Positions 3,335 through 60,392 of a stretch of DNA of 64,000 nt are shown piece by piece. The notes under the pieces are model-generated. The model made no database searches and had not been told where the DNA came from. It worked only from the letters and a program-made list of their open reading frames with translations. The stretch's first letter is position 1. Each line of letters opens with the position of its first letter. Source of the DNA: an uncultured Actinomycetes bacterium (GTDB lineage: Bacteria; Actinomycetota; Thermoleophilia; Gaiellales; Gaiellaceae); contig CAVTCK010000017.1 of NCBI GenBank assembly GCA_963733155.1, positions 9,590-73,589 of the forward strand, in the 5' to 3' direction. The position numbers and the translations under genes were made by a program.

Positions 3335-3349
3335 GCGTATCTTGAGAGA

Positions 3350-3395
3350 CGGGAGCGACGGGACCCGAACCCACGACCTCCGGCGTGACAGGCCG
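3350..3395 (-). repeat. Remnant copy of the 3' 46 nt of tRNA-Asp (att-like scar)
   Basis: cgggagcgacgggacccgaacccacgacctccggcgtgacaggccg matches the anticodon-loop-to-3'-end part of the intact tRNA-Asp at 6829-6902 with 2 mismatches. No D-arm or acceptor 5' half lies upstream. Confidence 0.7.
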
Positions 3396-3537
3396 CGCCC
3401 AGCGCCGCGCTCCGACGGGCGGCGATAAGGGTGGATAGGCCGGAACCCTTACGGCTACAGGGTTGCGGCCCCTTGTCCGACGCAAGCAAGCGGTTCCCGC
3501 TCCGCGTCTCGGGATGCGCCGTTCGGCACACGGTGCT

Positions 3538-4179
3538 TCAGTCAGCGGTGGCGGTTGCATACTGCGGGCGCCCGGTGGGCCGATAGACCTGGATCGTTAC
3601 ACCCTTCGAGTCGGCTCGCGAGTCGACCAGGTCAAGCGCAATGTCCGGGCCGGCGTCGGGGAACAGCCGCGTGCCCTGGCCGAGGACCACGGGGACGATG
3701 AGCAGGTTGATCTCGTCGACGAGGTCGTTTTCGAGCAGCCATCGGATCAGTGCACCGCTGCCGTGCACCTGCAGCTCACCCGCCGGCTTGGCTTTCAGCT
3801 CGCCGATGGCAGCCGCGAGGTCACCGGAGAGGAGGGTGGTGTTCGCCCAGCGCGGTTCGGTGAGCGTGGTCGATGCGAGGTACTTGGGCTTCGTGTTCAA
3901 GGCATCTGCGATCGGGTGGTTGCCCGGATCTTCCGCCGCGGCGCGAGCCCGCTCCTCTGCGCCCCAGTAGCCGGCGAAGAGCTCGTAGGTCCGCCGGCCG
4001 AACAGGAACGCGTCGGCGCGCTGGTAGGTCTGGTTGATGAACGTCATGGTCTCGTTGTCGGCCACCCCCATGGCCCATCCGCCGCGCTCGAATCCGTTCC
4101 TGCGGTCCTCATCCGACGCGCCGCCGTTTCCCTGCATCACTCCATCGACGGTGACTTGCGTCATGGTGGTCAGTTTCAT
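3538..4179 (-). CDS. Dihydrofolate reductase family protein (RibD C-terminal domain type)
   Basis: MKLTTMTQVTVDGVMQG...FLFGRRTYELFAGYWG...ELQVHGSGALIRWLLENDLVDEINLLIVPVVLGQGTRLF. Start taken at the internal ATG 4179 of track ORF 3538-4224. Confidence 0.8.
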   Translation of the reverse strand: MKLTTMTQVTVDGVMQGNGGASDEDRRNGFERGGWAMGVADNETMTFINQTYQRADAFLFGRRTYELFAGYWGAEERARAAAEDPGNHPIADALNTKPKYLASTTLTEPRWANTTLLSGDLAAAIGELKAKPAGELQVHGSGALIRWLLENDLVDEINLLIVPVVLGQGTRLFPDAGPDIALDLVDSRADSKGVTIQVYRPTGRPQYATATAD

Positions 4180-6644: not shown

Positions 6645-6828
6645 CGCGAGCGGTTGAAGCTAGGCGATCACCGCGAGACGAAGCCCTGCGTCACGCTTGA
6701 GCAGATTGCAGCGCCGAGTAGCGTTGGACAGGCGGGCCAGAGCTGAGGAACGTTCAGGGCACTGAGCTGCAACCGCAGAGTGCCCGGACGTCTGTGCCAC
6801 GTCGGGCGCAAGCCGCTTGAGCAAAGGA

Positions 6829-6902
<74 letters not shown>

Positions 6903-7006
6903 GGGCGCCGGACAATCTTAGCCGCGGACGGGCGTCCCCGGGCGTGCCCAAGCGGAGCGAGGCGCCGCCGGTCACGGCGACGCCCCGCTCCAGGGCGGGC
7001 TCGGTC

Positions 7007-9431: not shown

Positions 9432-10628
9432 TCAAGGCTCGAGCACGACCTTGATCGCGCCGTCCTGCTTCTTCTGGAAGATCTCGTAGCCGTGCGGGGC
9501 ATCGTCGAGCGGCAGCCGGTGGGTGGCGAGGTCATCGACGCCGAGCGGGTCGTCGTCGTCGGCCACGAGCGGCAGGAGGTCGTCGATCCAGCGCTTGACG
9601 TTGCGCCTGGCCCATGCGCGACTGTGAGCGCTTGTCGAAGATCTGCAGCATCGGCAGCGGGTCGGCCGTGCCGCCGTAGACGCCGATGATCGAGATCGTT
9701 CCGCCGCGGCGGACCGACGTCGATCGCGTCCAGGAGCGCCGGCAAGCCGATCGACGCCCGGCCTTCTCCATCATCGGCCGCGGCGACGGCAGTCGGGCAG
9801 CAGCCCGACGGACTTCTGCGCGAGCCTCGGCGCACCTCGGCGCCGTGCGCCTCCATGCCGACCGCGTCGATCACCGAGTCCGGACCGCGGCCGTCCGGTG
9901 CGTTCGCGAGACGGCCCGGCGACGTCGTCGTGCTCGTCGGCGTCGATCACCTCGACCCCGTGACGGCGTGCCATCTCGAGCCGCTCGGGCACGAGATCGA
10001 CTGCCGAAGACCCGCCGGCGCCCTGGTGCTTGGCGATGCGCGCGCTCATCTGGCCGATGGGGCCGAGCCCGAAGACGGCGACGCTCCCGCCGGCGGGGAC
10101 GTCGGCGTACTCCACCGCCTGCCACGCGGTCGGCAGCACGTCCGAGAGGAAGAGGAAACGCTCGTCCGGCGGGCCGTCGGGCACCTTGATCGGGCCGAAG
10201 TGCGCCTGCGGGACCCGTAGGTAGCTCGGCCTGGCCGCCCGGAACCTGGCCGTAGAGCTTCGTGTAGCCGAAGAGCGCGGCGCCCGTGTCGTGCTCGCGC
10301 ACCTGGGTCGTCTCGCACTGTGACGTGGAGCCCGCGGTCGCACATCCAGCAGTGCCCGCAGGAGATGTTGAACGGGATCACGACGCGGTCGCCGCCGCTT
10401 GATGTGGGTGACCGTCGGCCCGACCTCCTCCACGATCCCCATCGGCTCGTGGCCGAGGATGTCGCCCTCGTCGATGAACGGGCCGAGCACCTCGTAGAGA
10501 TGCAGGTCGGAGCCGCAGATCGCCGTCGACGTGACCCGGACGATCGCGTCGGTCGACTCCTCGATCGTCGGGTCCGGGACGTCGTCGACGCGGACGTCCC
10601 GCCTGCCGTGCCAGGTGAGTGCCTTCAT
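9432..10628 (-). pseudogene. Zinc-dependent alcohol/formaldehyde dehydrogenase (MDR family), multiply frameshifted
   Basis: MKALTWHGRRDVRVDDVPDP...ICGSDLHLYE...GHEPMGIVEEVG; IPFNISCGHCWMCDRGLH; REHDTGAALFGYTKLYGQVPGGQAE; FGPIKVPDGPPDERFLFLSDVLPTAWQAVEYA...VAVFGLGPIGQM; IDAVGMEAHG; C-terminus HGYEIFQKKQDGAIKVVLEP. These lie in at least 5 different frame segments. Confidence 0.8.
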
Positions 10629-22638: not shown

Positions 22639-23130
22639 GTGATCCTGCGCGAGCCCGCTACCGCGCCCGACCCGCGGGTGCGGACGTACTGGCTGGTCGA
22701 GAACCTGATCGCCACCGGCGTCGTCGCGGGGCTCGTGATCGCGGGCACGGTCGTCGCGGCCCTGCTGGGCGCGAGCACGGTGGCGTGGCTCGTGGGCGGG
22801 CTCGGCGGGCTCCTCGTCGTCGTCCTCGTGGTGCTCTCGTTCGTCGGCGCCGGGCTCGACTACCGGCACTTCCGCTACGAGGTCGCCGACCTCGGGCTCG
22901 CCGTCGCGAGCGGCTGGCTCTGGCGCCGCTACCAGGTCGTGCCGCACGCCCGCGTGCAGACGGTGGACACGACCTCGAACCCGCTGATGCGCGCATTCGG
23001 CCTCGTCTCGGTCGAGGTGACGACCGCGTCGGCGGCCGGCGGCACCTCGATCCCCGGGCTGACTCCGGAGGTCGCCGATGGGCTCGTCGAGGAGCTCGCG
23101 CGCCGCGCCGGCTTGGAGGAGGGAACCTGA
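22639..23130 (+). CDS. YdbS-like membrane protein with a bacterial PH (bPH_2) domain
   Basis: Two TM helices (ATGVVAGLVIAGTVVAALLG...LLVVVLVVLSFVGAGL), then YRHFRYEVADLGLAVASGWLWRRYQVVPHARVQTVDTTSNPLMRAFGLVSVEVTTA. Start taken at GTG 22639. Confidence 0.7.
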   Translation: MILREPATAPDPRVRTYWLVENLIATGVVAGLVIAGTVVAALLGASTVAWLVGGLGGLLVVVLVVLSFVGAGLDYRHFRYEVADLGLAVASGWLWRRYQVVPHARVQTVDTTSNPLMRAFGLVSVEVTTASAAGGTSIPGLTPEVADGLVEELARRAGLEEGT

Positions 23131-23266
23131 GCGTCGCTCGCCTTCGGCTCGCTCCCGTGGGGGAAACCATGTTTCCCCCACGTGCCCCCTTCTTTGAGAC
23201 AGTGAGGGAACCTCCCGGGTCCCTCACACGCCCTCCCCACCCTCACAGGCCTGGTGGCCTGTGAGC
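23127..23266 (+). repeat. Family-A intercistronic repeat, copy 1 (three hairpins; open 45-codon frame ending in a GTGA overlap)
   Basis: About 85-90% identical by eye to 51731-51873. Hairpins at 23157-23181, 23202-23227 and 23242-23265. Bounded by TGAGCG on both sides (the stop at 23128-23130 and the start at 23261-23263). Confidence 0.85.
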
Positions 23267-24697
23267 GCGAGGGCCGCCGAGCTCGAGGGGCGCTTGCACC
23301 CCCTCGCCGTGCTCGTCTATGCGCGCCGGTTCATCGGCGCGAGCATCCTGCCCCTCCTCGTGCTTCTGGTCTCCGCGGGCACGCGCGTGCTCGTCCCGCT
23401 CCTGGCGGTCGCGCTCTTCGTCGGGCTGCCGCTCGCGATCCTTTCCTGGTGGCGCTTCCGCTACCGCGTGAGCGGAGGGCGGCTCGAGCTCCACTCCGGC
23501 GTCTTCAGCCGGTCCGTGCGGACGATCCCGCGGGAGCGGGTTCGCGGCATCGACGTGACCGAGCCGTTCGTCCACCGGCTGTTCGGGCTCGTCAAGGTGG
23601 AGGTCGAAGCGGCAGCGGGAGGCGACTCGAAGCAGGCCGAGCTCTCGCTCGCTGCCGTCTCGCGCGGGCAGGCCGACGAGCTCCGCGAGGCGCTGCTCGG
23701 CGGCGGCGCGGGCGCCGCCGAGGCGGCGGAGGCCGAGCCGCTCTACCAGGCGACGCCGGGCCTGCTCGCCCTCGGCGGGATCACGAGCATGAGCTACCTC
23801 CTGGCCCCGGCCGCGATCGTCGGCGTCGTGCTCAACTTGGCGGACGATCTGCCCGGCGACGTTGTCGAGAGCGCCGTCGAGGGTGCTGCCGACCGATTCC
23901 CCACCGACCTCCTCGGGCTCGTTCTAGTCGGAACGGCGGCGGTCGCCGTCGTTCTCGCGGCTGCCGCCGCCGGCTCGCTGCTCGTCGACTGGGCGTTCAC
24001 GCTCAGGGACGAGGGCGAGCGGCTGGCCGCCACCCGCGGGCTACTCACGCGTCGCGCCGTTCATCTCGACCGGGATCGCATCCGCGGCGCGGACGTGCGC
24101 GATTCCCCGCTCCGGCGGCCGCTCCGCCTTGCCTCCGTCACGGCGATCGCCGCCGGGCTGCGCGGCCGCACCGGCGGGACCTCGCTTGCACCCGTGCTTC
24201 GCTCGCGGTCCGTCCCGGCTCTTCTTCGCGCTGTCGATCCCGCGGCGCCCGACCCGAGCGCGCCGCTCGTCGCTCATCCGCCCGCCGCGCGGTGGCGGCG
24301 GCTGACGCGGGCACTGCCGCTGCCGCTCGCCGGCCTGGTCGCCGCCGCAGTCTTCGGTGTCCTCTGGGCAGTCGCCGCTGCGGCGGCGCTCACGGCTGCG
24401 GCTGTCCCGCTCGCGCTCGACCGCTACCGCCAGCTCGGACACGCGTACGACGGCCGGCGTCTCGCTCTGCGAGGAGGCACGTTGCGACGCCGCTGGTCGG
24501 AGGTCGATCCCGACGGCGTCGTCTCCTTCGACCTGCGGAGCTCGCCGGGGCAGCGCCGTGCCGGCCTCGCCACGCTCACCGTCCACCTCGGGCAGGGCGC
24601 CGGCTCGCGCCGTGCTCTGGACATCGGGGAGGAGCAGGCGGCCGAGCTCCTCGGCCGCGTACACCCGCAGCTCTTCGGACCTCTCAGCCGACGCTGA
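23261..24697 (+). CDS. YdbT-like membrane protein with repeated bPH_2 domains
   Basis: LHPLAVLVYARRFIGASILP...WWRFRYRVSGGRLELHSGVFSRSVRTIPRERVRGIDVTEPFVHRLFGLVKVEVEAA, followed by two further similar modules. GTG start. Confidence 0.8.
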   Translation: MSARAAELEGRLHPLAVLVYARRFIGASILPLLVLLVSAGTRVLVPLLAVALFVGLPLAILSWWRFRYRVSGGRLELHSGVFSRSVRTIPRERVRGIDVTEPFVHRLFGLVKVEVEAAAGGDSKQAELSLAAVSRGQADELREALLGGGAGAAEAAEAEPLYQATPGLLALGGITSMSYLLAPAAIVGVVLNLADDLPGDVVESAVEGAADRFPTDLLGLVLVGTAAVAVVLAAAAAGSLLVDWAFTLRDEGERLAATRGLLTRRAVHLDRDRIRGADVRDSPLRRPLRLASVTAIAAGLRGRTGGTSLAPVLRSRSVPALLRAVDPAAPDPSAPLVAHPPAARWRRLTRALPLPLAGLVAAAVFGVLWAVAAAAALTAAAVPLALDRYRQLGHAYDGRRLALRGGTLRRRWSEVDPDGVVSFDLRSSPGQRRAGLATLTVHLGQGAGSRRALDIGEEQAAELLGRVHPQLFGPLSRR

Positions 24698-44282: not shown

Positions 44283-45316
44283 ATGGCTCCGCCCTTCCGC
44301 GTCGGCGTCATGCAGCTGACCATGGAGCCGCTCGAGGAGATGCTCGAGACGGCCGCGGTCATGGACCGGGTGGGCATGGACACGATCTGGCTGGCCGAGG
44401 CCTACCCCTGGTGGCGAAAGCACGGGATGGAGGCGCGCTCCTCGACCGTCGTCTCGGCCCTGATCGCGGAGCGGGACCGAGCGGATCGCCGTCGGCTGGG
44501 GGATCATCTCCCCGTTCACGCGGCACCCGGTGCAGGCGGCCATGGACGCGCGGGTCGTCCAGGAGGCTGCCGGGCCGGGGCGTTTCCTGCTCGGCTTCGG
44601 CACCTCGAAGATCTTCTTGAACAACGCGCGTGATGCAGACGAAGAAGACGCTCGGGCCGATGCGCGACGCCGTGGCGATCGTTCGCGGCGTCCTCGCGCG
44701 GTGAGCCCTTCGAGTACGAGGGCGAGACGTGGAGCGCCTCCGTGCCCGGCCTCGCGGAGGCGGCGGAAACGCCGCGAGAGGTCCCGCCCGTGTACGTCGC
44801 GGCGACGGCGCCCAAGATGCAGGCGCTCGCGGGTGAGATCGGCGACGGCTGCCTGACGCCTTCGATCACGACGCCGGCCTTCGTCCGCTACACCCGCGAG
44901 AACGTCAAGGCCGACATCGACATCGGCTGCACAGTCGTCGCCTCCGTGCACGAGTCCGACCGGGACGTGGGCGCGACGGCGCCCGTGAGATCGCAGCCAT
45001 GTACCTCGCCAACAAGTTCCAGAACATCAAGGGGTCGGCGGACACGCTGCTCGAGCTGGCCGGGATCGAGATGGAGGAGCTCGCGCCCGTGGCCGAGGCG
45101 ATGGAGAGCGGCGGCCGCCTCGCCGCGAAGGAGCAGGTGACCGACTCCCTCCTCGACCGGTGCAAGCCGATCGCCGGCACGCCCGAGGACTGCGTCGCGG
45201 CGATCGAGGAGTACCGCGAGGCGGGCTGCACCCACGTCATGCTCGAGCTCTGGGGCGAGGACCGCCACCGCCAGCTCGAGGTCTTCGGGGAGCGCGTCCT
45301 CCCGCAGGTGCGATGA
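44283..45316 (+). pseudogene. LLM-class (luciferase-like) flavin/F420-dependent oxidoreductase, about 3 frameshifts
   Basis: FRVGVMQLTMEPLEEMLETAAVMDRVGMDTIWLAEAY / IAVGWGIISPFTRHPVQAAMDARVVQEAAGPGRFLLGFG / VPPVYVAATAPKMQALAGEIGDGCL / MYLANKF...GTPEDCVAAIEEYREAGCTHVMLEL, in different frames. Confidence 0.75.
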
Positions 45317-46511
45317 TCGACGAGCGCCGCCTGATCGACCTCGCAATCCGGCTGGTCTCGACGCCGTCGTTCACCGGCTCCGAGGAGGCCGCGGCGGAGC
45401 TCGTCCGCGACGAGCTCGCTTCCCTCGGCCTCCAGGTGCAGTGGCAGCAGGTCGAAGAGGGGCGCGCGAACGTGCTCGGAACCTGGCCGGGCGAGGGCGG
45501 CGGCCCGACGCTCATGTTCAACGGCCACCTGGACACCTCGTACTCGGGACGCGAGCCGTGGCTCCAGGGCATTCCGGGCTTCCAGCCCGAAGGCTTCGAG
45601 CGCGACGGCCGCATCTACGGGCTCGGCATCTCGAACATGAAGGGCGCGGTCGCCTGCTACGTCGAGGCGGTGCGGTCGCTGATAGAGGACGGGGTGCGCC
45701 TGCGCGGCGACGTGATGATCGCCGCCGTCGCCGGCGAGATCGAGAAGACGCAGGAGGGCGATGCCCAGGGCGCCGAGTACCGCGGGTACGCAGCCGGGTC
45801 ACGCCACCTGGTCGGCCACGGCGGCGCGGCCGACATGTGCATCCTCGGCGAGCCGACGGAGAACAAGGTGGTGCTCGCGCACTTCGGCACGCTCTGGCTG
45901 CGCCTGCGCACGCGCGGGCCGTTCATCCACACGGCCTTCAGCGCGGGGCGGCAGGAGGAGAACTCGATCGTGCGCATGGGCGCCGTGCTCGAACGCGGTG
46001 CTCGCCTGGCTGCCGAGCTGGGAGGAGGAGATGAGCTACGGCGACGTCCGCGGGGTCGCCAACGTCGGCGCGATCCGCGGCGGCTTCGGCTGGCGCGTCT
46101 CGCAGAACGCCGCACGAGACCGACCTCTACCTCGACCTCCGCGTCCCGCCCTCGGTTCCCATGGCGGAGGCCCGCCGGAAGGCGCTCGAGTTCGCCCGCG
46201 GCCTCGACGGCGTCGAGGCGGAGGCGTACGTGACGGCGCCGGGGGCCGAGATCGAGGAGGGGCATCCGCTCGTGGCCGCGCTCGACGCCGCCCACGCCGA
46301 GGTCTTCGGCGAGGCGCCCGAGCGCGACGTCACGCGCTGGTTCTCGGACGCGTCGGTTCTCTCCCGCTACGGGATCGCCACGGTCAACTACGGTACGTCG
46401 AGCGGCCTGCCCGACGCGGAGCTGGGGGAGAACCTGGAGATCGAGGGGCTGGTGAAGACGGCGGAGGTCTACGCGCGGGTCGCGACGAAGATCTGCGGAG
46501 TGGTGGAGTGA
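45313..46511 (+). pseudogene. M20-family amidohydrolase (ArgE/DapE-like deacylase), about 2 frameshifts
   Basis: LVSTPSFTGSEEAAAELV...MFNGHLDTS...GLGISNMKGAVACYVEAV (ORF 45160-). WLPSWEEEMSYGDVRGVANVGAIRGG (ORF 45761-). MAEARRKALEF...GEAPERDVTRWFSDASVL (ORF 46161-46511). ATGA overlap with the upstream gene. Confidence 0.8.
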
Positions 46512-47374
46512 AGCTTGTCACCTTCGACGAGGGCCGCGTAGGCGTTCTGGACGGCGAGGAAATCGCCGTTCTCGACGCCCCGAGCATGCGGACGTACTTC
46601 GAGCGCGGCGGCGCAGGGGAGACCGGCGAGCGGGTTCCGCGCGAAGCCGCCCGCCTGCGCGCGCCGATCGTCCCCAAGAAGTTCTTCCACACGGCAGGCA
46701 ACTTCCGCGAGCACGAGGAGGAATCCAAGCGCGTCGACTGGTCGCACGAGATCGCCCCCTGGATCGTCTTCTTCCAGAACGTCGACGCGATCGTCGGCCC
46801 CGACGAGCCGGTCGTCTATCCCGAGCATCTGACCGAGGAGCTCGACTACGAGCTCGAGCTCGCCGTCGTCATCTCGAAGCCCGGGAAGTGGTTCGGGCCC
46901 GAGGAGGCCGCCGACTACATCGGCGGCTACGTCATCTTCAATGACGTGACCGCACGCGACATCCAGCGGCGTGAGATGCGCTCGGGCGTCTTCTCCTTCT
47001 GCAAGGCGATCGACACGTTCTGCCCGCTCGGCCCGTGGATCGTCACGCCCGACGAGATCTCCGACCCGCACGACCTTGCCATGGAGCTCCGGGTGAACGG
47101 CGAGCCGCGGCAGGTCTCCCACTCGAGCCGGATGTCCGTGACGATCCCGGAAATCGTCTCCCACTACTCGGCGCTCGGGTACAGCGCCGGCGACGTCGTC
47201 TCGACCGGAACCGTTTCCGGGGTGGCGGGCTTCAGCGAGGACGCCGCCTCGCTCTACCTGCGGCCGGGCGACGTGATGGAGGGCGAGATCGAGGGGATCG
47301 GCGTCCTCCGCAACCCCGTGGTCTCGTGGGAGGAGGCGCACGGGGAGCCGGCACCGCCGCGGGTCCGTTGGTGA
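46508..47374 (+). CDS. Fumarylacetoacetate hydrolase (FAH) family protein
   Basis: Intact 288 aa. PKKFFHTAGNFREH...LDYELELAVVISKPG...IGGYVIFNDVTARDIQ...CKAIDTFCPLGPWIV...GDVVSTGTVSGV. GTG start in a GTGA overlap. Confidence 0.85.
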   Translation: MKLVTFDEGRVGVLDGEEIAVLDAPSMRTYFERGGAGETGERVPREAARLRAPIVPKKFFHTAGNFREHEEESKRVDWSHEIAPWIVFFQNVDAIVGPDEPVVYPEHLTEELDYELELAVVISKPGKWFGPEEAADYIGGYVIFNDVTARDIQRREMRSGVFSFCKAIDTFCPLGPWIVTPDEISDPHDLAMELRVNGEPRQVSHSSRMSVTIPEIVSHYSALGYSAGDVVSTGTVSGVAGFSEDAASLYLRPGDVMEGEIEGIGVLRNPVVSWEEAHGEPAPPRVRW

Positions 47375-47664
47375 CCGCCTCTCCGGCTTGTGCTCTTGTG
47401 GAGATGGGAGACCCGCCTCCCCAACCCGATGGCTTTAGAACTCGTCTCAAAATGAAGCCTTGTGCCGTCGGGCCGCGCTGCTCGCCCCGAGAGCGGCGTC
47501 CTCAGTCGCGCCCATACCGCTGCGGGTATGGGCGCTCCCTGCGTCCTTGTCTCGGAACGATCATCGCACCCCGACGGCGAAGCGTCATTCTGAAACGAGT
47601 TCTCAGCCTAACCCGACAATCCGCGCGCGTGGGAGACGGATCCGCGCCGGAAGCGTGCCGGTGA
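47371..47664 (+). other. 97-codon intercistronic ORF spanning the whole FAH-M24 gap, with GTGA overlaps at both ends; contains repeat B1
   Basis: GTG 47371 overlaps the FAH TGA (47372-47374). TGA 47662-47664 overlaps the GTG 47661 of the M24 gene. The frame is that of track ORF 47035-47664. Confidence 0.6.
47437..47603 (+). mobile_element. Family-B MITE-like repeat, copy 1 (22-nt imperfect terminal inverted repeats, central hairpin)
   Basis: TIRs agaactcgtctcaaaatgaagc / gcgtcattctgaaacgagttct (19/22 complementary). Hairpin cgcccatacc-gctgcg-ggtatgggcg at 47509-47534. Shares gcgtcctc.gtcgcgccc and gcgctccctgcgtccttg.ctcg with copy 2. Confidence 0.8.
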
Positions 47665-48829
47665 GCTGGCCTCGCGACTCGGCGAAACTCGACCGGGTAC
47701 GCGCGTTGATGGCGGACCGCGGAGCTCGACGCCCTCGTTGTCAGGGCGCCCGACAACGTCCTCTATCTGTCCAACTACTGGTGCATGAAGGGCTACGACG
47801 TCGTCGTCTTCCCGCGCGAGGGTGACCCGACCCTGGTTGTGCTCGAGCCCCAGCAAGCCGACGCCGAGCGCATGGCCTGGACGTCCGACATCCGTCTCTT
47901 CAAGGGCTACGACGAGCGCGATCCGCGCCCGCCGACGGCGCGCTCGCTCGAGCTCGCCCAGGCGGTCGTACGCGAGGCAGGGTACGAGCGGGTCGGCCTG
48001 GAGCTTTCGCTCGGGACGCAGGCCGCCGACCGCATGGTCGGGGAGCCGACGCACGTACACGCACGACTTCTTCCACGCCTTCGGCGCGGCGGAGGACGCG
48101 ACGCCGCTCCTCGTCGAGGCGCGCGCAGTCAAGACTCCGCAGGAGATCGAGCGCATGCGGCTCGCCAACGAGCTCGCGGCCCGCGCGATGGAGCACGTCC
48201 GGCGCGAGCTGCGGCCGGGCATGAAGGAGAGCGAGGCGGGGGCCCTCTGGGAGGGCTTCGTCCACGGCGAGGGCACCGGCTACCAGGGCAAGGTGGAGCT
48301 TGCGCGCGGGTTCTGCGCTCGTCTGGTCGGGCCCGGGCATCCGCACCTTCACGGCGACCGGCGACCGCCCCGTGCAGGAGCACGAGCCGACGCTCTTCGA
48401 GATCTGGGTCTGCGTCGACGGCTACTGGTGCGACCACACGAAGAACGTCTGCCCCGGCGAGCTCGCGCCGGAGTACGAGCGGCTGCTCGAGCAGCCTGCT
48501 CGCGGTCTACGAGGCCGCGATCGACCACCTCGCGCCTGGTGCGCGACCTGGCCGAGCTCGACCGCCTCGTCCGTGACGGCATCGCTGAGGCCGGCTACCC
48601 GGGCCAGCCGTCGCACCCCGTCGCCCACGGCGTGGGGGCGCGTGCCCATGAGCCGCCGTACGCACACCAGGCCGGAGGCGGCATCATCCAGGAAGGCATG
48701 GTGCTGGCGATCGAGCCGGGGGCGTACTGGGAGGGCGGCGGCGGGCTCCGCCTCGAGGACAACTTCCTCGTCACCGCTGACGGCGCCGAGCGGCTCTCCT
48801 CCTTCCCCGACGACTTCCGCGCGACGTGA
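47661..48829 (+). pseudogene. M24-family metallopeptidase (creatinase/Xaa-Pro aminopeptidase/ectoine-hydrolase-like), about 5 frameshifts
   Basis: SAKLDRVRALMADRG / MKGYDVVVFPREGDPTLVVLEPQQ... / FFHAFGAAEDATPLLVEARAVKTPQEIERMRLANELAARAMEH... / LVWSGPGIRTF...FEIWVCVDGYWCDHTKN / AELDRLVRDGIAEAGY...HGVGARAHEPP...GMVLAIEPGAY...LEDNFLVT, in alternating frames. Confidence 0.8.
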
Positions 48830-51153: not shown

Positions 51154-51734
51154 GCGACTACGCGGAATTCGCGCCCGACCCCCGGGTCCTCGTCGGCGGC
51201 TACATCGAGGCGGATCCCGCCTTCGCCCCGCGCCGGCCGGCCAGCGTGGACGAGGAGACGTTCAAGTCCGCGATGCGCTCGCTCGCCGCGGGCGTCGTCA
51301 TGGTGATCGCGCGCAAGGGCGACCGGCTCTGGGGCCTGACGATCAGCGCGTGCTGCTCGATCTCGGCCAACCCGCCCCGGGTGCTGATCTCGCTCGCCGA
51401 CGACGCGAGCTGCCGGGACGCGATCCTCGAGACGCGGCGCTTCGGCCTCAGCGTGCTCCGCGACGACCAGAAGCATCTGGCCGAGCTCGGCGCGGTGCCG
51501 GGCGCGCCCAAGTATGTGGACGTGTTCTGCGAGGACGCGGGCTCCGAGGAGCCGACGACGATGATCGCGGGCGCGCTCGTCCACCTCGAGTGCGCCGTCG
51601 AGCGCGTCTTCGGCGTGAGCGGCCACACGCTCCTGATCGGCGACGTTCAAGCAGTCGTCTCCTCGAGCCGCGAGGGCGGCCCGCTCCTCTACTTCGACCG
51701 CACCTTTCACGCGCTCGGAGACACCCTGCGATGA
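51150..51734 (+). CDS. Flavin reductase (FMN-binding split-barrel) family protein
   Basis: FKSAMRSLAAGVVMVIARKGDRLWGLTISACCSISANPPRVLISL...TLLIGDVQAVV...PLLYFDRTFHAL. GTG start in a GTGA overlap with the gntR-like gene. Confidence 0.8.
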   Translation: MSDYAEFAPDPRVLVGGYIEADPAFAPRRPASVDEETFKSAMRSLAAGVVMVIARKGDRLWGLTISACCSISANPPRVLISLADDASCRDAILETRRFGLSVLRDDQKHLAELGAVPGAPKYVDVFCEDAGSEEPTTMIAGALVHLECAVERVFGVSGHTLLIGDVQAVVSSSREGGPLLYFDRTFHALGDTLR

Positions 51735-51873
51735 GCGTCGCTCGCCTCCGGCTCGCTCCTGTGGGGGAAACCAGCGCTCCCCCACGGGCCCCCTTCTTTG
51801 AGACAGTGAGGGAACCTCCCGGTTCCCTCACACACCCTCCACACGCTCATAGGCCAAAGGTCGGCCTATGAGC
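51731..51873 (+). repeat. Family-A intercistronic repeat, copy 2 (46-codon ORF with ATGA overlaps at both ends; three hairpins)
   Basis: ORF MSVARLRLAPVGETSAPPRAPFFETVREPPGSLTHPPHAHRPKVGL, 51731-51871. Hairpins at 51761-51785, 51806-51831 and 51846-51872. Flanked by ATGAGCG on both sides. Confidence 0.85.
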
Positions 51874-57855: not shown

Positions 57856-58615
57856 GTGACCGATACGGCGCCGGAAGCCCGCCGCTGGCCCGGAGAGACT
57901 CTCCGGGCCAGCGGCATATCACGCTCCTTCGAAGGCGTGCACGCGCTCAACGGCGTGTACGCTCGAGCTGCATCGCCACGAGGTCGTCGGGCTGATCGGC
58001 CCGAACGGCGCCGGGAAGACGACGCTCGTCAACATCGTCACGGGCTTCGACTCCCCTACCGAGGGCGAGGTCGAGCTCGCGGGTGAGGCGATCACGTCGT
58101 GGGCGCCCCACCGCCGGGCGCGGGCCGGGCTGGCGCGGACGTACCAGCAGGGGAGGCTCTTCTCCGGCCTCTCGGCGCGCGAGAACGTCGAGGTGGCCGC
58201 GCTCGGCGTCGGTGCCTCGCCCCGCGAGGCGAGGCGGCGGGCCGGCGAGCTCCTCGCCCTGCTCGGGCTCGAGCGCCGCGCGGACTCCTCGGCGGCCGTC
58301 CTCCCGCACGGAGAGGAGCGAAAGCTCGGCGTCGCGCGCGCGTTGGCCACCGATCCTCGTTTCGTCCTCATGGACGAGCCGGCGGCGGGCCTGTCCGAGG
58401 CCGAGGTGCCGGACTTCGCAGAGGTCGTGCGGACGGTGCGCGAGGAGCGCGAGGCCGGCGTGCTCCTGATCGACCACAACGTCGCCCTCATCCTCGAGGT
58501 CTGCGACCGCATCCAGGTTCTCGACCAGGGCAGGACGCTCGCCGAGGGAACGCCGGCAGAGATTCGGCGCAACATCGACGTCACGGCCGCCTACCTCGGG
58601 AGCGCGCGTGCGCTA
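57856..58615 (+). pseudogene. livG: LivG-like ABC ATP-binding protein; a frameshift near 57957 and no in-frame stop before repeat B2
   Basis: ISRSFEGVHALNGV, frame change, then LELHRHEVVGLIGPNGAGKTTLVNIVTG...LPHGEERKLGVARALATDPRFVLMDEPAAGL...LLIDHNVALI...DVTAAYLGS. Confidence 0.8.
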
Positions 58616-58780
58616 AGAACCCGTTTCGAAATGAAGCCGGGTGTCGCCGGAACGCCCTGGACGGCGCGATTCTGCGTCCTCGGTCGCGCCCGTATTCTCG
58701 AATACGAGCGCTCCCTGCGTCCTTGCCTCGCACTCGCCCAGGACGCCCCGACGACAGCGCGTCATTCCAAAATGAGTTCT
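58616..58780 (+). mobile_element. Family-B MITE-like repeat, copy 2, between the livG-like and livF-like genes
   Basis: TIRs agaacccgtttcgaaatgaagc / gcgtcattccaaaatgagttct (17/22). Hairpin cgcccgtatt-ctcg-aatacgagcg at 58687-58710. Open in the livG frame throughout. The livF-like ATG (58772) lies inside the right TIR. Confidence 0.8.
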
Positions 58781-59493
58781 GACGCCATCCTCGAGCTCCG
58801 GGATCTCGAGCTCCGCTACGGCGGCGTCCCCGCGGTGCGCGGCCTCAGCCTGCGGCTCGAGCGCGGCGAGGTGGTGGGGCTCGTCGGCCCGAACGGAGCC
58901 GGGAAGACCTCGACGCTCCTGGCGATCATGGGCGTCGTCCAGCCGTACCGCGGGGAGATCCTGCACGCTCGGGCGGCCGCTCGCGGGCCTCGGGACGGAC
59001 GCGATCGTGCGCTCGGGAGTCGCGCTCGTGCCCGAGGGACGGCAGATCTTCCCGGAGCTCACGGTCGAGGAGAATCTCAGGCTGGGGCTGGTCGGCCGCC
59101 GCTCGCGGGACGGCGCCGAGGATGACCTCGCGCGCGTCGCCGCCCTCTTCCCCGTCGTCGGCGGGGACCGCCACCGCCCTGCGGGCGTGCTCTCCGGCGG
59201 GCAGCAGCAGCAGCTTGCGATCGCGCGGGCGCTCGTCGCCCGGCCCGACCTTCTCCTCCTCGACGAGCCCTCCCTCGGGCTTGCGCCGACGGTCGTCGAG
59301 GATGTCTTCGCCGCGCTGGCGGAGATCCGGGAGGGCGGCGTCACGATCCTGCTCGTCGAGCAGCGGGCGCAGTTCGCCGTCGGCTTCGCCGACCGCACCC
59401 ACGTGCTCGCGAACGGGCGAGCTCAGGCTCACGCTGACTCCGGCGGACGCGGACGACACCGCCCGCATCACCGCGGCCTACTTCGGATCGTGA
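58772..59493 (+). pseudogene. livF: LivF-like ABC ATP-binding protein, 2 frameshifts
   Basis: ILELRDLELRYGGVPAVRGLSLRLERGEVVGLVGPNGAGKTSTL / GVALVPEGRQIFPELTVEENL...LSGGQQQQLAIARALVARPDLLLLDEPSLGL...ILLVEQ / [25 protein letters not shown]. Confidence 0.8.
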
Positions 59494-59506
59494 CTGGAGG
59501 GCGGCC

Positions 59507-60392
59507 ATGAGTGCGCTCCAGACCCTGATCGACGCGGTCGCGCTCGGGTCGATCTACGCGCTCGTCGCCATGGGGATCGGCCTCGTCTTCGGCGTCATGC
59601 GGCTGATCAACTTCGCTCACGGGGAGCTGATCACTGCCGGGCGCCTACGCTCTCGCCCTCACGAACCACTTGCCGCTCGCGGTGAGCCTCGTCGCCTGCT
59701 TCGGCGTCGTGGTCGCGCTCGCGCTCGCGATGGACGTGACCTACCGGCCGCTGCGGACGACGACGCCGACCACGATGCTGGTGACGACGTTCGCCGTCTC
59801 GTTCCTCCTCCAGGCCGTGGCGCTCCTCGCGTTCGGCGCGCGGGGGAAAACGTCGGCGTGCTCCCCGAGCTGAACCGGGCCGTGTCGATCGGCGACCTTC
59901 GCATCCGGTGGGTGACGCTCGTCTCCATCGCGGTGGGCGGCGTGCTCCTCGGAGCGACGGCCGCCGTCCTGCTACGCGGACGGATATCGGGCTCCAGATG
60001 CGCGCGGCGGCGATGAACGCGCAAACGGCGCGGCTGCTCGGCGTGCGCGCCTCGACGGTCATCCGTTTCGCGTTCGTCCTTGCCGGGATCTCGTGGCCGC
60101 CTCGGCGACCGTCCTGCTCACGGTCCAGCGGCCCCTCGTCACACCGACCTACGGCTTCCAGCTCGTCATCCCGGCGCTCGTGGGGGTGGTGGTCGGGGGC
60201 ATGGACCGGCTCGTGAGCGCGACGCTCGGCGGCTTCGCGATCGGCTTCGCGGCCGCCGTGCTCGGCGACGTCCTCCCCGCCGACGGGCGCGTCTTCCTGG
60301 ACACCGCGCTCTTCCTGCTCGTCATCCTCGTCCTGCTCGCGCGCCCGAGCGGGCTCTTCACCCGCTCGCGCGCGGCCTGGGAGCGGCTGTGA
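59507..60392 (+). pseudogene. livH: LivH-like ABC permease, 4 frameshifts
   Basis: [45 protein letters not shown] / [13 protein letters not shown]...[25 protein letters not shown] / [18 protein letters not shown] / [19 protein letters not shown] / LLTVQRPLVTPTYGFQLVIPALVGVVVGGMD...LLARPSGLF. Confidence 0.8.

Follow-up and report, generated by a model that had tools for sequence, protein, structure and literature searches.

Insertion sequences (IS) of the IS5 family and their miniature inverted-repeat transposable elements (MITEs) are the bacterial counterparts of PIF/Harbinger-Tourist elements, and IS5 subgroups and PIF/Tourist elements duplicate TNA or TWA triplets. Other described groups of repeats invite comparison. 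First, the Correia elements of Neisseria and the ERIC/IRU elements (enterobacterial repetitive intergenic consensus sequences, or intergenic repeat units) of the Enterobacteria are palindromic MITEs of 100-170 nt with TA-containing targets, often found between genes of one operon and co-transcribed with their neighbours as long RNA hairpins. They affect mRNA processing. Second, repetitive extragenic palindromic (REP) sequences, bacterial interspersed mosaic elements (BIMEs) and REP doublets that form hairpins (REPINs) are imperfect palindromes that abound at the 3' ends of genes and between convergent genes. Third, mycobacterial interspersed repetitive units (MIRUs) and the Rickettsia palindromic elements lie inside operons or genes without destroying expression, and MIRUs have been described with small open reading frames (ORFs) that overlap the stop and start codons of their neighbours. 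Here we describe a palindromic repeat of 165 bases that lies between an FAH-family gene and an M24 gene in a 64,000-nt stretch of DNA from an uncultured Actinomycetes bacterium of the family Gaiellaceae (hereafter the window; positions 9,590 to 73,589 of contig CAVTCK010000017.1, forward strand, assembly GCA_963733155.1). From comparison of sequences, we propose that the repeat is a non-coding MITE that depends for its movement on a DDE transposase of the IS5 family supplied in trans, a reading to which we give a probability of roughly 80%.

The repeat resembles IS5-family elements in several ways. It ends in the same termini as a 903-bp IS with an NF033580 transposase, it has a 3-bp T-N-A duplication (mostly TTA or TAA) in a palindromic C-TNA-G context, and it occurs as many short non-coding derivatives of several lengths. 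Judged by its letters, it has every testable defining feature of an IS5-derived MITE. It departs from the IS5 pattern in that about 20 nt of terminus are all that it has in common with the IS, and in that one core occurs with several unrelated termini. Size, palindromic build, insertion at TA-containing targets, probable co-transcription as a long hairpin and a frequent position between genes of one operon recall the Correia and ERIC/IRU elements, but sequence, host phylum and transposase family are different, and the TNA target with a 3-bp duplication that would regenerate stop codons is a further distinction. Like REP, BIME and REPIN sequences, the repeat is an imperfect palindrome that lies at gene ends and between convergent genes and has conserved, strand-specific mismatches, but REPs lack target-site duplications and depend on a REP-associated tyrosine transposase (RAYT) of the HUH type, whereas TNA duplications and DDE-type IS termini are found here. 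The likeness to MIRUs and Rickettsia palindromic elements is one of position; unlike them, the present family has no conserved frame and no tandem-unit build, and its copies lie on stop codons rather than in frame within genes. In the papers that were searched, no account of such a repeat was found for Thermoleophilia or Gaiella.

Two copies of a palindromic element in the window

Copy 1 occupies positions 47438-47602 (+ strand; GAAC...GTTC, 165 nt) in the FAH-M24 intergenic spacer, with its borders set by blastn and by alignment to empty sites. It folds as a single long hairpin (-91.9 kcal/mol, z -7.7). An earlier note on this DNA had described a MITE-like repeat with 22-nt terminal inverted repeats (TIRs), a central hairpin, a conserved box and a second copy 11 kb away in another gene context, and all of these were recovered. 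The left TIR, AGAACTCGTCTCAAAATGAAGC (47437-47458, + strand), and the right TIR (47582-47603, - strand) are complementary at 19 of their 22 positions, with zero such arms expected in shuffled sequence; the 903-bp elements discussed below begin at their left end with the same 19 nt as the left TIR. Paired termini are present in all family members. The core of copy 1 (47496-47549, + strand) consists of a left box, GCGTCCTCAGTCGC (47496-47509), a variable hairpin of 11 bp (47508-47535) and a right box, GCGCTCCCTGCGTCCTTG (47532-47549); all features lie at, or at most 2 nt from, the places that they had first been given.

Copy 2 is 163 nt long (58617-58779, + strand) and sits exactly at the stop codon of a livG-like ABC ATPase gene, as judged from the empty site in an ortholog. 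Its core runs from 58674 to 58725 (+ strand), with the left box at 58674-58687 and the right box, the second occurrence of GCGCTCCCTGCGTCCTTG in the window, at 58708-58725. Over 58616-58780, it is 82% identical to copy 1, with small indels, and it is an independent copy. Both lengths fall below the limit of about 300 bp that is used for non-coding MITEs. With a covariance model of the core, these two copies and no others are recovered from the window (85.7 and 81.5 bits), the next match scoring 16 bits. When the window was compared by blastn with all fetched loci (cited here by L numbers), similarity was confined to 47436-47607 and 58612-58780. A larger segmental duplication is thus excluded, since similarity ends at the element borders.

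Searches for known signals in and around copy 1 were negative. No terminator-like site (a G+C-rich hairpin followed by a T run) was found in 47300-47750, and no sigma-70 promoter in the copy 1 region. Rfam 15 gave no known RNA family at the gathering score or at E up to 10, the window yielding four tRNAs alone; the best sub-threshold match on the copy 1 region was Rhodo-rpoB (E = 0.2).

Empty sites at orthologous junctions

Two orthologous M20-FAH-M24-HMGL operons (L122 and L123) show the FAH-M24 junction without the element. The FAH gene itself (46508-47374, 288 aa) has the same length in more than 100 orthologs at 84-94% identity; an exact look-up of its protein gave no record. The FAH-M24 spacer is 109 and 129 nt long in the two orthologs and 286 nt long in the window. 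At the site of copy 1, both orthologs read ...GATGGCT-CGA-GCCTAAC.... More fully, L123 has ...CCCGATGGCT-CGA-GCCTAAC..., and the window has ...CCCGATGGCT-TTA-(GAAC...GTTC)-TCA-GCCTAAC..., such that the element is the sole interruption of a conserved spacer. It begins 63 nt past the FAH stop codon and ends 58 nt ahead of the M24 start codon, within a pre-existing spacer of ~120 nt. The target would have been a CTNAG-like palindromic site (GGCT-NNN-AGCC) in that spacer. The flanking triplets, TTA at 47435-47437 and TCA at 47603-47605, form an imperfect target-site duplication, as recognised from the empty-site alignment and the TNA flanks of the family at large. Copy 1 is probably a nearly neutral passenger that forms a long hairpin in the operon transcript. 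The spacer without the MITE (47375-47434 plus 47606-47660 in the window; L122 3868-3976; L123 3880-4008) measures ~110-130 nt, is conserved between species and holds a repeated GGGAGAC motif; it could be a regulatory leader for the M24 gene.

The second empty site is at the livG-livF junction. In the ortholog L124, livG and livF overlap by 8 nt, and the junction reads GCGCATGCC-TGA-CGCG. In the window, it reads GCGCGTGCGC-TAA-(element)-TGA-CGCC; therefore, copy 2 was inserted exactly at the livG stop codon. The right duplicated triplet, TGA (58780-58782), corresponds to the ancestral livG stop codon and is now part of codons 3-4 of livF. The left one, TAA (58614-58616), lies where the Pfam domain BCA_ABC_TP_C ends; if an inserted base upstream is disregarded, it probably now serves as the stop codon of the livG-like gene. 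The former livF start codon now reads into TAA. An ATG within the right TIR (58772-58774, + strand), where the family consensus has ACG, is in frame with the livF-like gene, and the N-terminus MSSDAILELRDLELRYGGV of the window's protein aligns with MPDAMLQIRDLELRYAGV of L124. This ATG is likely the new livF-like start codon. In such a sequence of events, copy 2 would have struck the livG stop codon and parted livF from its old start, and a point change in the right TIR would then have supplied an in-frame ATG. The absence of the element from both orthologous junctions, together with the TIRs and the target-site duplications described below, upholds the earlier description of a MITE-like repeat.

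Terminus, target site and transposase

The left terminus was used to scan metagenomes, giving 120 loci. The window-type terminus borders core-less MITEs (50-260 nt), the 165-nt type with the core (37 of 72), elements of 689-832 nt with unrelated ORFs, and two elements of 903 bp. The latter, L159 and L213, both on metagenome contigs, have the same 19-nt terminus as the MITE and encode two overlapping ORFs that match DUF4096 (90.8 bits) and DDE_Tnp_1 (76 bits). When the two ORFs are joined at an A-rich slippery site, their product matches NCBIfam NF033580 (IS5 family transposase) from position 2 to 257 of the 258-position profile, scoring 245.9 bits where the cut-off is 110. The transposase is apparently made by a frameshift at this site. 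An element that carries a transposase between T-N-A/GAAC ends, as the earlier note had suggested looking for, thus exists. As a separate observation, elements such as L230 6114-6945, L179 and L189 have the same IS5-type termini with unrelated cargo ORFs (689-832 nt) in place of the transposase, and these ORFs resemble small secreted proteins.

Target-site duplications are found across many copies. Among 72 elements with the window-type terminus, the 3-nt flanks are identical in 41, as compared to an expected 14 and a maximum of 23 in 1000 shuffles. The identical flanks are TTA (19), TAA (12), TGA (5), CTA (3) and TCA (2), and 27 of the 41 stand in a C..G context. TNA flanks in this context indicate that the target is C-TNA-G with duplication of TNA.

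The 97-codon open reading frame

The spacer as sequenced is spanned by an open frame of 97 codons (47371-47664, + strand), which the earlier note took for a genuine ORF that holds the element and is coupled to both neighbouring genes, a picture that resembles the one described for MIRUs. The letters are as claimed: the GTG at 47371-47373 overlaps the FAH stop codon TGA (47372-47374), and the TGA at 47662-47664 overlaps the M24 start codon GTG (47661-47663). On this alternative, the frame would be a real small gene, translationally coupled to FAH and M24, and the repeat a protein-coding insertion. The uninterrupted frame and the GTGA overlaps at both its ends speak for such a gene, as does copy 2, which lies in a frame that continues from the livG-like into the livF-like gene. 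However, G+C content at codon positions 1, 2 and 3 is 0.69, 0.66 and 0.61, whereas it is 0.68, 0.44 and 0.93 in FAH, and a Pfam scan of the 97-codon frame found no family. Since the central hairpin measures anything from 17 to 23 nt, no frame is conserved across copies. Frames without stops run through family members about as often as through shuffled sequence, conservation is at the nucleotide level and covers all three codon positions, and the spacer of the orthologs measures just 109-129 nt at this place. Hence, we regard a coding function as highly improbable. The small gene was rejected on composition, the lack of a Pfam family and the variability of the frame, and with it went the supposed habit of the family to maintain a frame that links it to the genes on either side. 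The GTGA overlaps do exist in the sequence, but they are no evidence of a coupled gene.

The window itself calls for caution with frames. Relative to L122, M24 has five 1-nt insertions and M20 two, while FAH has none, and the Pfam domains M20, M24 and ABC_tran are each split over ORFs in different frames. Such frame-breaking insertions, which also count against a small gene here, make any statement about reading frames in this DNA fragile. The broken regions (47661-48829, 45310-46511 and 58193-59510) all have +1 insertions, none of them at a homopolymer, which points to insertion-type assembly errors or recent decay.

Position at gene ends

Where do copies of the family lie relative to genes? 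Gene frames and strands were called by the rule that G+C content at the third codon position exceeds that at the first, which exceeds that at the second (GC3>GC1>GC2). Of the 78 genome loci that have an upstream gene on the same strand, about 70 have its stop codon between -12 and +13 nt from the element start. Among 20 loci of the metagenome sample, the duplicated triplet is itself the stop codon in 12, and the stop codons of convergent downstream genes lie at the opposite end of the element. The earlier note had described a preference for junctions within operons. The family does sit at gene junctions; however, in the genome sample convergent contexts (29) are as common as co-directional ones (33 + 8), and divergent contexts are rare (2). 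Core-less MITEs with the window-type terminus show the same coincidence with stop codons, which indicates that the habit reflects the choice of target. Every triplet that is commonly duplicated is a stop codon or the complement of one.

A simple mechanism would account for this distribution. In genomes of ~70% G+C, the TNA triplets that tolerate insertion would mostly be stop codons (TAA and TGA) or their complements. Duplication of the triplet would regenerate the stop codon and leave the upstream protein unchanged, and copies would thus accumulate exactly at gene ends, both at operon junctions and between convergent genes. We infer that the position of the family at gene junctions is set by insertion at TNA stop codons and by survival under selection, and not by conservation of a frame.

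Some sister subfamilies have a Shine-Dalgarno sequence in the arm. Among 15 junctions where a start codon abuts the element, 10 have a Shine-Dalgarno motif in the right arm, 6-9 nt upstream; examples precede rplB (L066) and an rpsD-like gene (L011 and L064). An element copy is also found in the dcw cluster (L056). In these subfamilies, the Shine-Dalgarno motif of the arm, 6-9 nt before the element end, would serve the downstream gene. It is plausible that a terminating ribosome melts the base of the hairpin and exposes this motif, a putative mechanism of coupling. The orientation of the core relative to transcription differs between samples, being 33 sense to 8 antisense in the genome sample and 3 to 9 in the independent metagenome sample, which represents the window's subfamily. 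A consistent sense orientation does not hold up on these counts, and the conflict leaves a simple mRNA-level role for one strand unsupported.

An invariant core with unrelated termini

The 18-mer right box, GCGCTCCCTGCGTCCTTG, was searched in a collection of species-representative genomes and is present in more than 120 genome stretches, nearly all of them metagenome-assembled genomes (MAGs) from soil that belong to the Gaiellales, Gaiellaceae and Solirubrobacterales of the class Thermoleophilia. In every one of these stretches, the box forms the 3' part of a core that is laid out as GCGTCCTC-R-GTCGC, a hairpin of 17-23 nt that varies in sequence but retains its pairing, and GCGCTCCCTGCGTCCTTG. 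Of the 113 stretches ascertained on the right box, 91 have an exact left box (R being A or G); conversely, copies ascertained via the left box retain the 16-mer GCTCCCTGCGTCCTTG in 8 of 8 cases. The outer arms are wholly different among subfamilies, which include the window's GAACTCGTCTCAAAATGA type, the GAGCTCCTAACG, TAGGAGGGTTTGGCG and TAGTGNCCCTCC types, and short forms of 100 nt in Solirubrobacterales. An invariant, asymmetric core is therefore common to elements with unrelated termini, across Gaiellales and Solirubrobacterales. Applied to 740 kb of flanking sequence, the core model finds ~14 extra copies, or roughly 20-30 per Mb. RNAalifold on a MAFFT alignment gave a poor consensus, and the element structure, a single long hairpin from end to end, was specified by hand. 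In the specified structure, 84.8% of cells pair, as compared to 74.5% in shuffles, and the covariation score is 0.277 rather than 0.128, with none of 500 shuffles as high and slid controls collapsing. The covariation is located in the enclosed hairpin and the flanking helix.

Six 16-mer matches on viral contigs are all due to chance, none with the left box, and a phage-borne element was rejected on this ground; a search for plasmid relatives found none. Three element-bearing contigs are labelled Acidobacteriota (L005), Thermoplasmata archaeon (L043) and beta proteobacterium (L068). Their sequence is Gaiellales-like, and they are probably mis-binned.

Several results weigh against an IS5-derived MITE. 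A DDE cut-and-paste element offers no reason for an invariant asymmetric core. Nor does the DDE model account for the way in which mismatches are biased by strand: the arms have 456 A.C and 112 G.U mismatches on the GCGTCC strand, and in the core the bias is reversed (204 G.U and 44 A.C). Both window copies have imperfect flanking triplets (TTA/TCA and TAA/TGA), and the two full-length IS copies, L159 and L213, lack perfect duplications. The IS is known from metagenome contigs, not from the window or the sampled genome stretches, and no relevant inverted repeat of IS size was found when about 1 Mb of these stretches was searched. MITE and IS share ~20 nt of terminus, and thus the MITE is not a simple deletion derivative of the IS. 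Finally, the neutrality of the insertions is presumed.

Some of these features would fit an element that is primarily a functional structured RNA, acting between cistrons or in the 3' untranslated region, for example in mRNA processing or stability, or in coupling of translation via the stop and start codons at the hairpin base. Mobility would then be secondary, with different IS5-type termini spreading a functional core. The invariance of the core at paired and unpaired positions alike, its covarying helices, its G.U wobble pairs on one strand and its association with unrelated termini in two orders all suggest such a role, as do the tolerance of copies in ribosomal-protein and dcw operons, the excess of sense copies at co-directional genome junctions and the Shine-Dalgarno motif in the right arm of operon-junction subfamilies. 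Yet this excess is not repeated in the window's own subfamily, no Rfam family matches, the stop-codon habit is equal in core-less MITEs, and variants without the core or without the left box persist. Moreover, the complement of the GCGTCC... strand is the better-folding one in 77 of 77 long elements (mean difference, 24 kcal/mol), because the arm mismatches on the GCGTCC strand are mostly A.C and not G.U. Taken together, we consider a primary role as RNA possible, although doubtful.

Could the core palindrome instead be read by a different enzyme? A REP- or REPIN-like element would be processed as single-stranded DNA, either by a domesticated transposase of the HUH (RAYT) type or by some other enzyme that recognises hairpins. 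This would agree with a core that is an imperfect palindrome whose bulges are conserved and whose mismatches are strand-specific, with copies at gene 3' ends and between convergent genes, and with the existence of tandem copies. It would not agree with clear 3-bp target-site duplications, termini identical to those of a DDE IS5-family element, clean insertion with a duplicated triplet at empty sites and the lack of a GTAG-type REP head. Nor was a RAYT gene seen, although no search aimed at one was made. We regard such an element as very unlikely. The tandem copies, L037 3114-3284 and L088 (- strand, about 2150-2320), are arranged head to tail and share a flanking triplet.

What, then, is the core? 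We take the 54-nt core, which is under strong sequence constraint, to be a putative cis-acting module that is recognised sequence-specifically by a protein or an RNA. More tentatively, the core with its covarying hairpin may be a functional cis-module, a recognition site in RNA or single-stranded DNA, that has repeatedly been joined to different IS5-type termini and has spread over two orders of Thermoleophilia; we rate this broader proposal as possible and on the whole less probable than its converse. Deletion derivatives with arms exist: a 73-nt element (L131) keeps its arms and misses the central 90 nt, and L043 and L056, the latter at the murF-mraY junction, lack the left box. Their existence indicates that the core is dispensable for persistence at a site. 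Secondary hairpin insertions are nested within the core in three copies, in the central hairpin of L070 (about 3512-3633) and in the left box of L083 and L113, and so interruption of the core is tolerated in a few copies. Short copies of the Solirubrobacterales type are also found directly after tRNA genes, in the orientation of the tRNA (L033 and L081).

Other repeats in the window

Two further repeats are present. The first, of ~140 nt and unrelated to the MITE, occurs at 23128-23278 and 51731-51873 (90% identical over 124 nt) and also in another MAG (L005 2555-2716). It has several internal hairpins and is bounded at both ends by TGAGCG, and it is probably the 'family A' of the earlier note. 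The second is a direct repeat of 48 nt, 96% identical, at 3348-3395 and 6827-6874, made up of the 3' half of tRNA-Asp (gene at 6826-6903). The pair resembles the attL and attR sites of a small integrated element (~3.4 kb).

Implications

What would an IS5-derived MITE in these genomes mean? First, it accounts for a recurrent, unannotated repeat in the genomes of soil Thermoleophilia, which are abundant and almost all uncultured. Second, gene callers that do not recognise the repeat make spurious ORFs and fusions from it, such as the 97-codon ORF and the read-through from livG through the element into livF. Third, the family would be an example of how target choice alone, C-TNA-G with duplication of TNA, can direct a transposon to stop codons where the G+C content of the genome is high. 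Such an element would then be able to sit even in ribosomal-protein and cell-division operons. Of all the features, only the invariant core with different termini could open the way to something new. If the core is indeed a functional cis-module, this mobile element bears conserved regulatory cargo in addition to the ends that a transposase binds, and the core may have spread because it renders insertion at the stop-start junctions of essential operons harmless, or because it brings the genes that it tags under a common factor.

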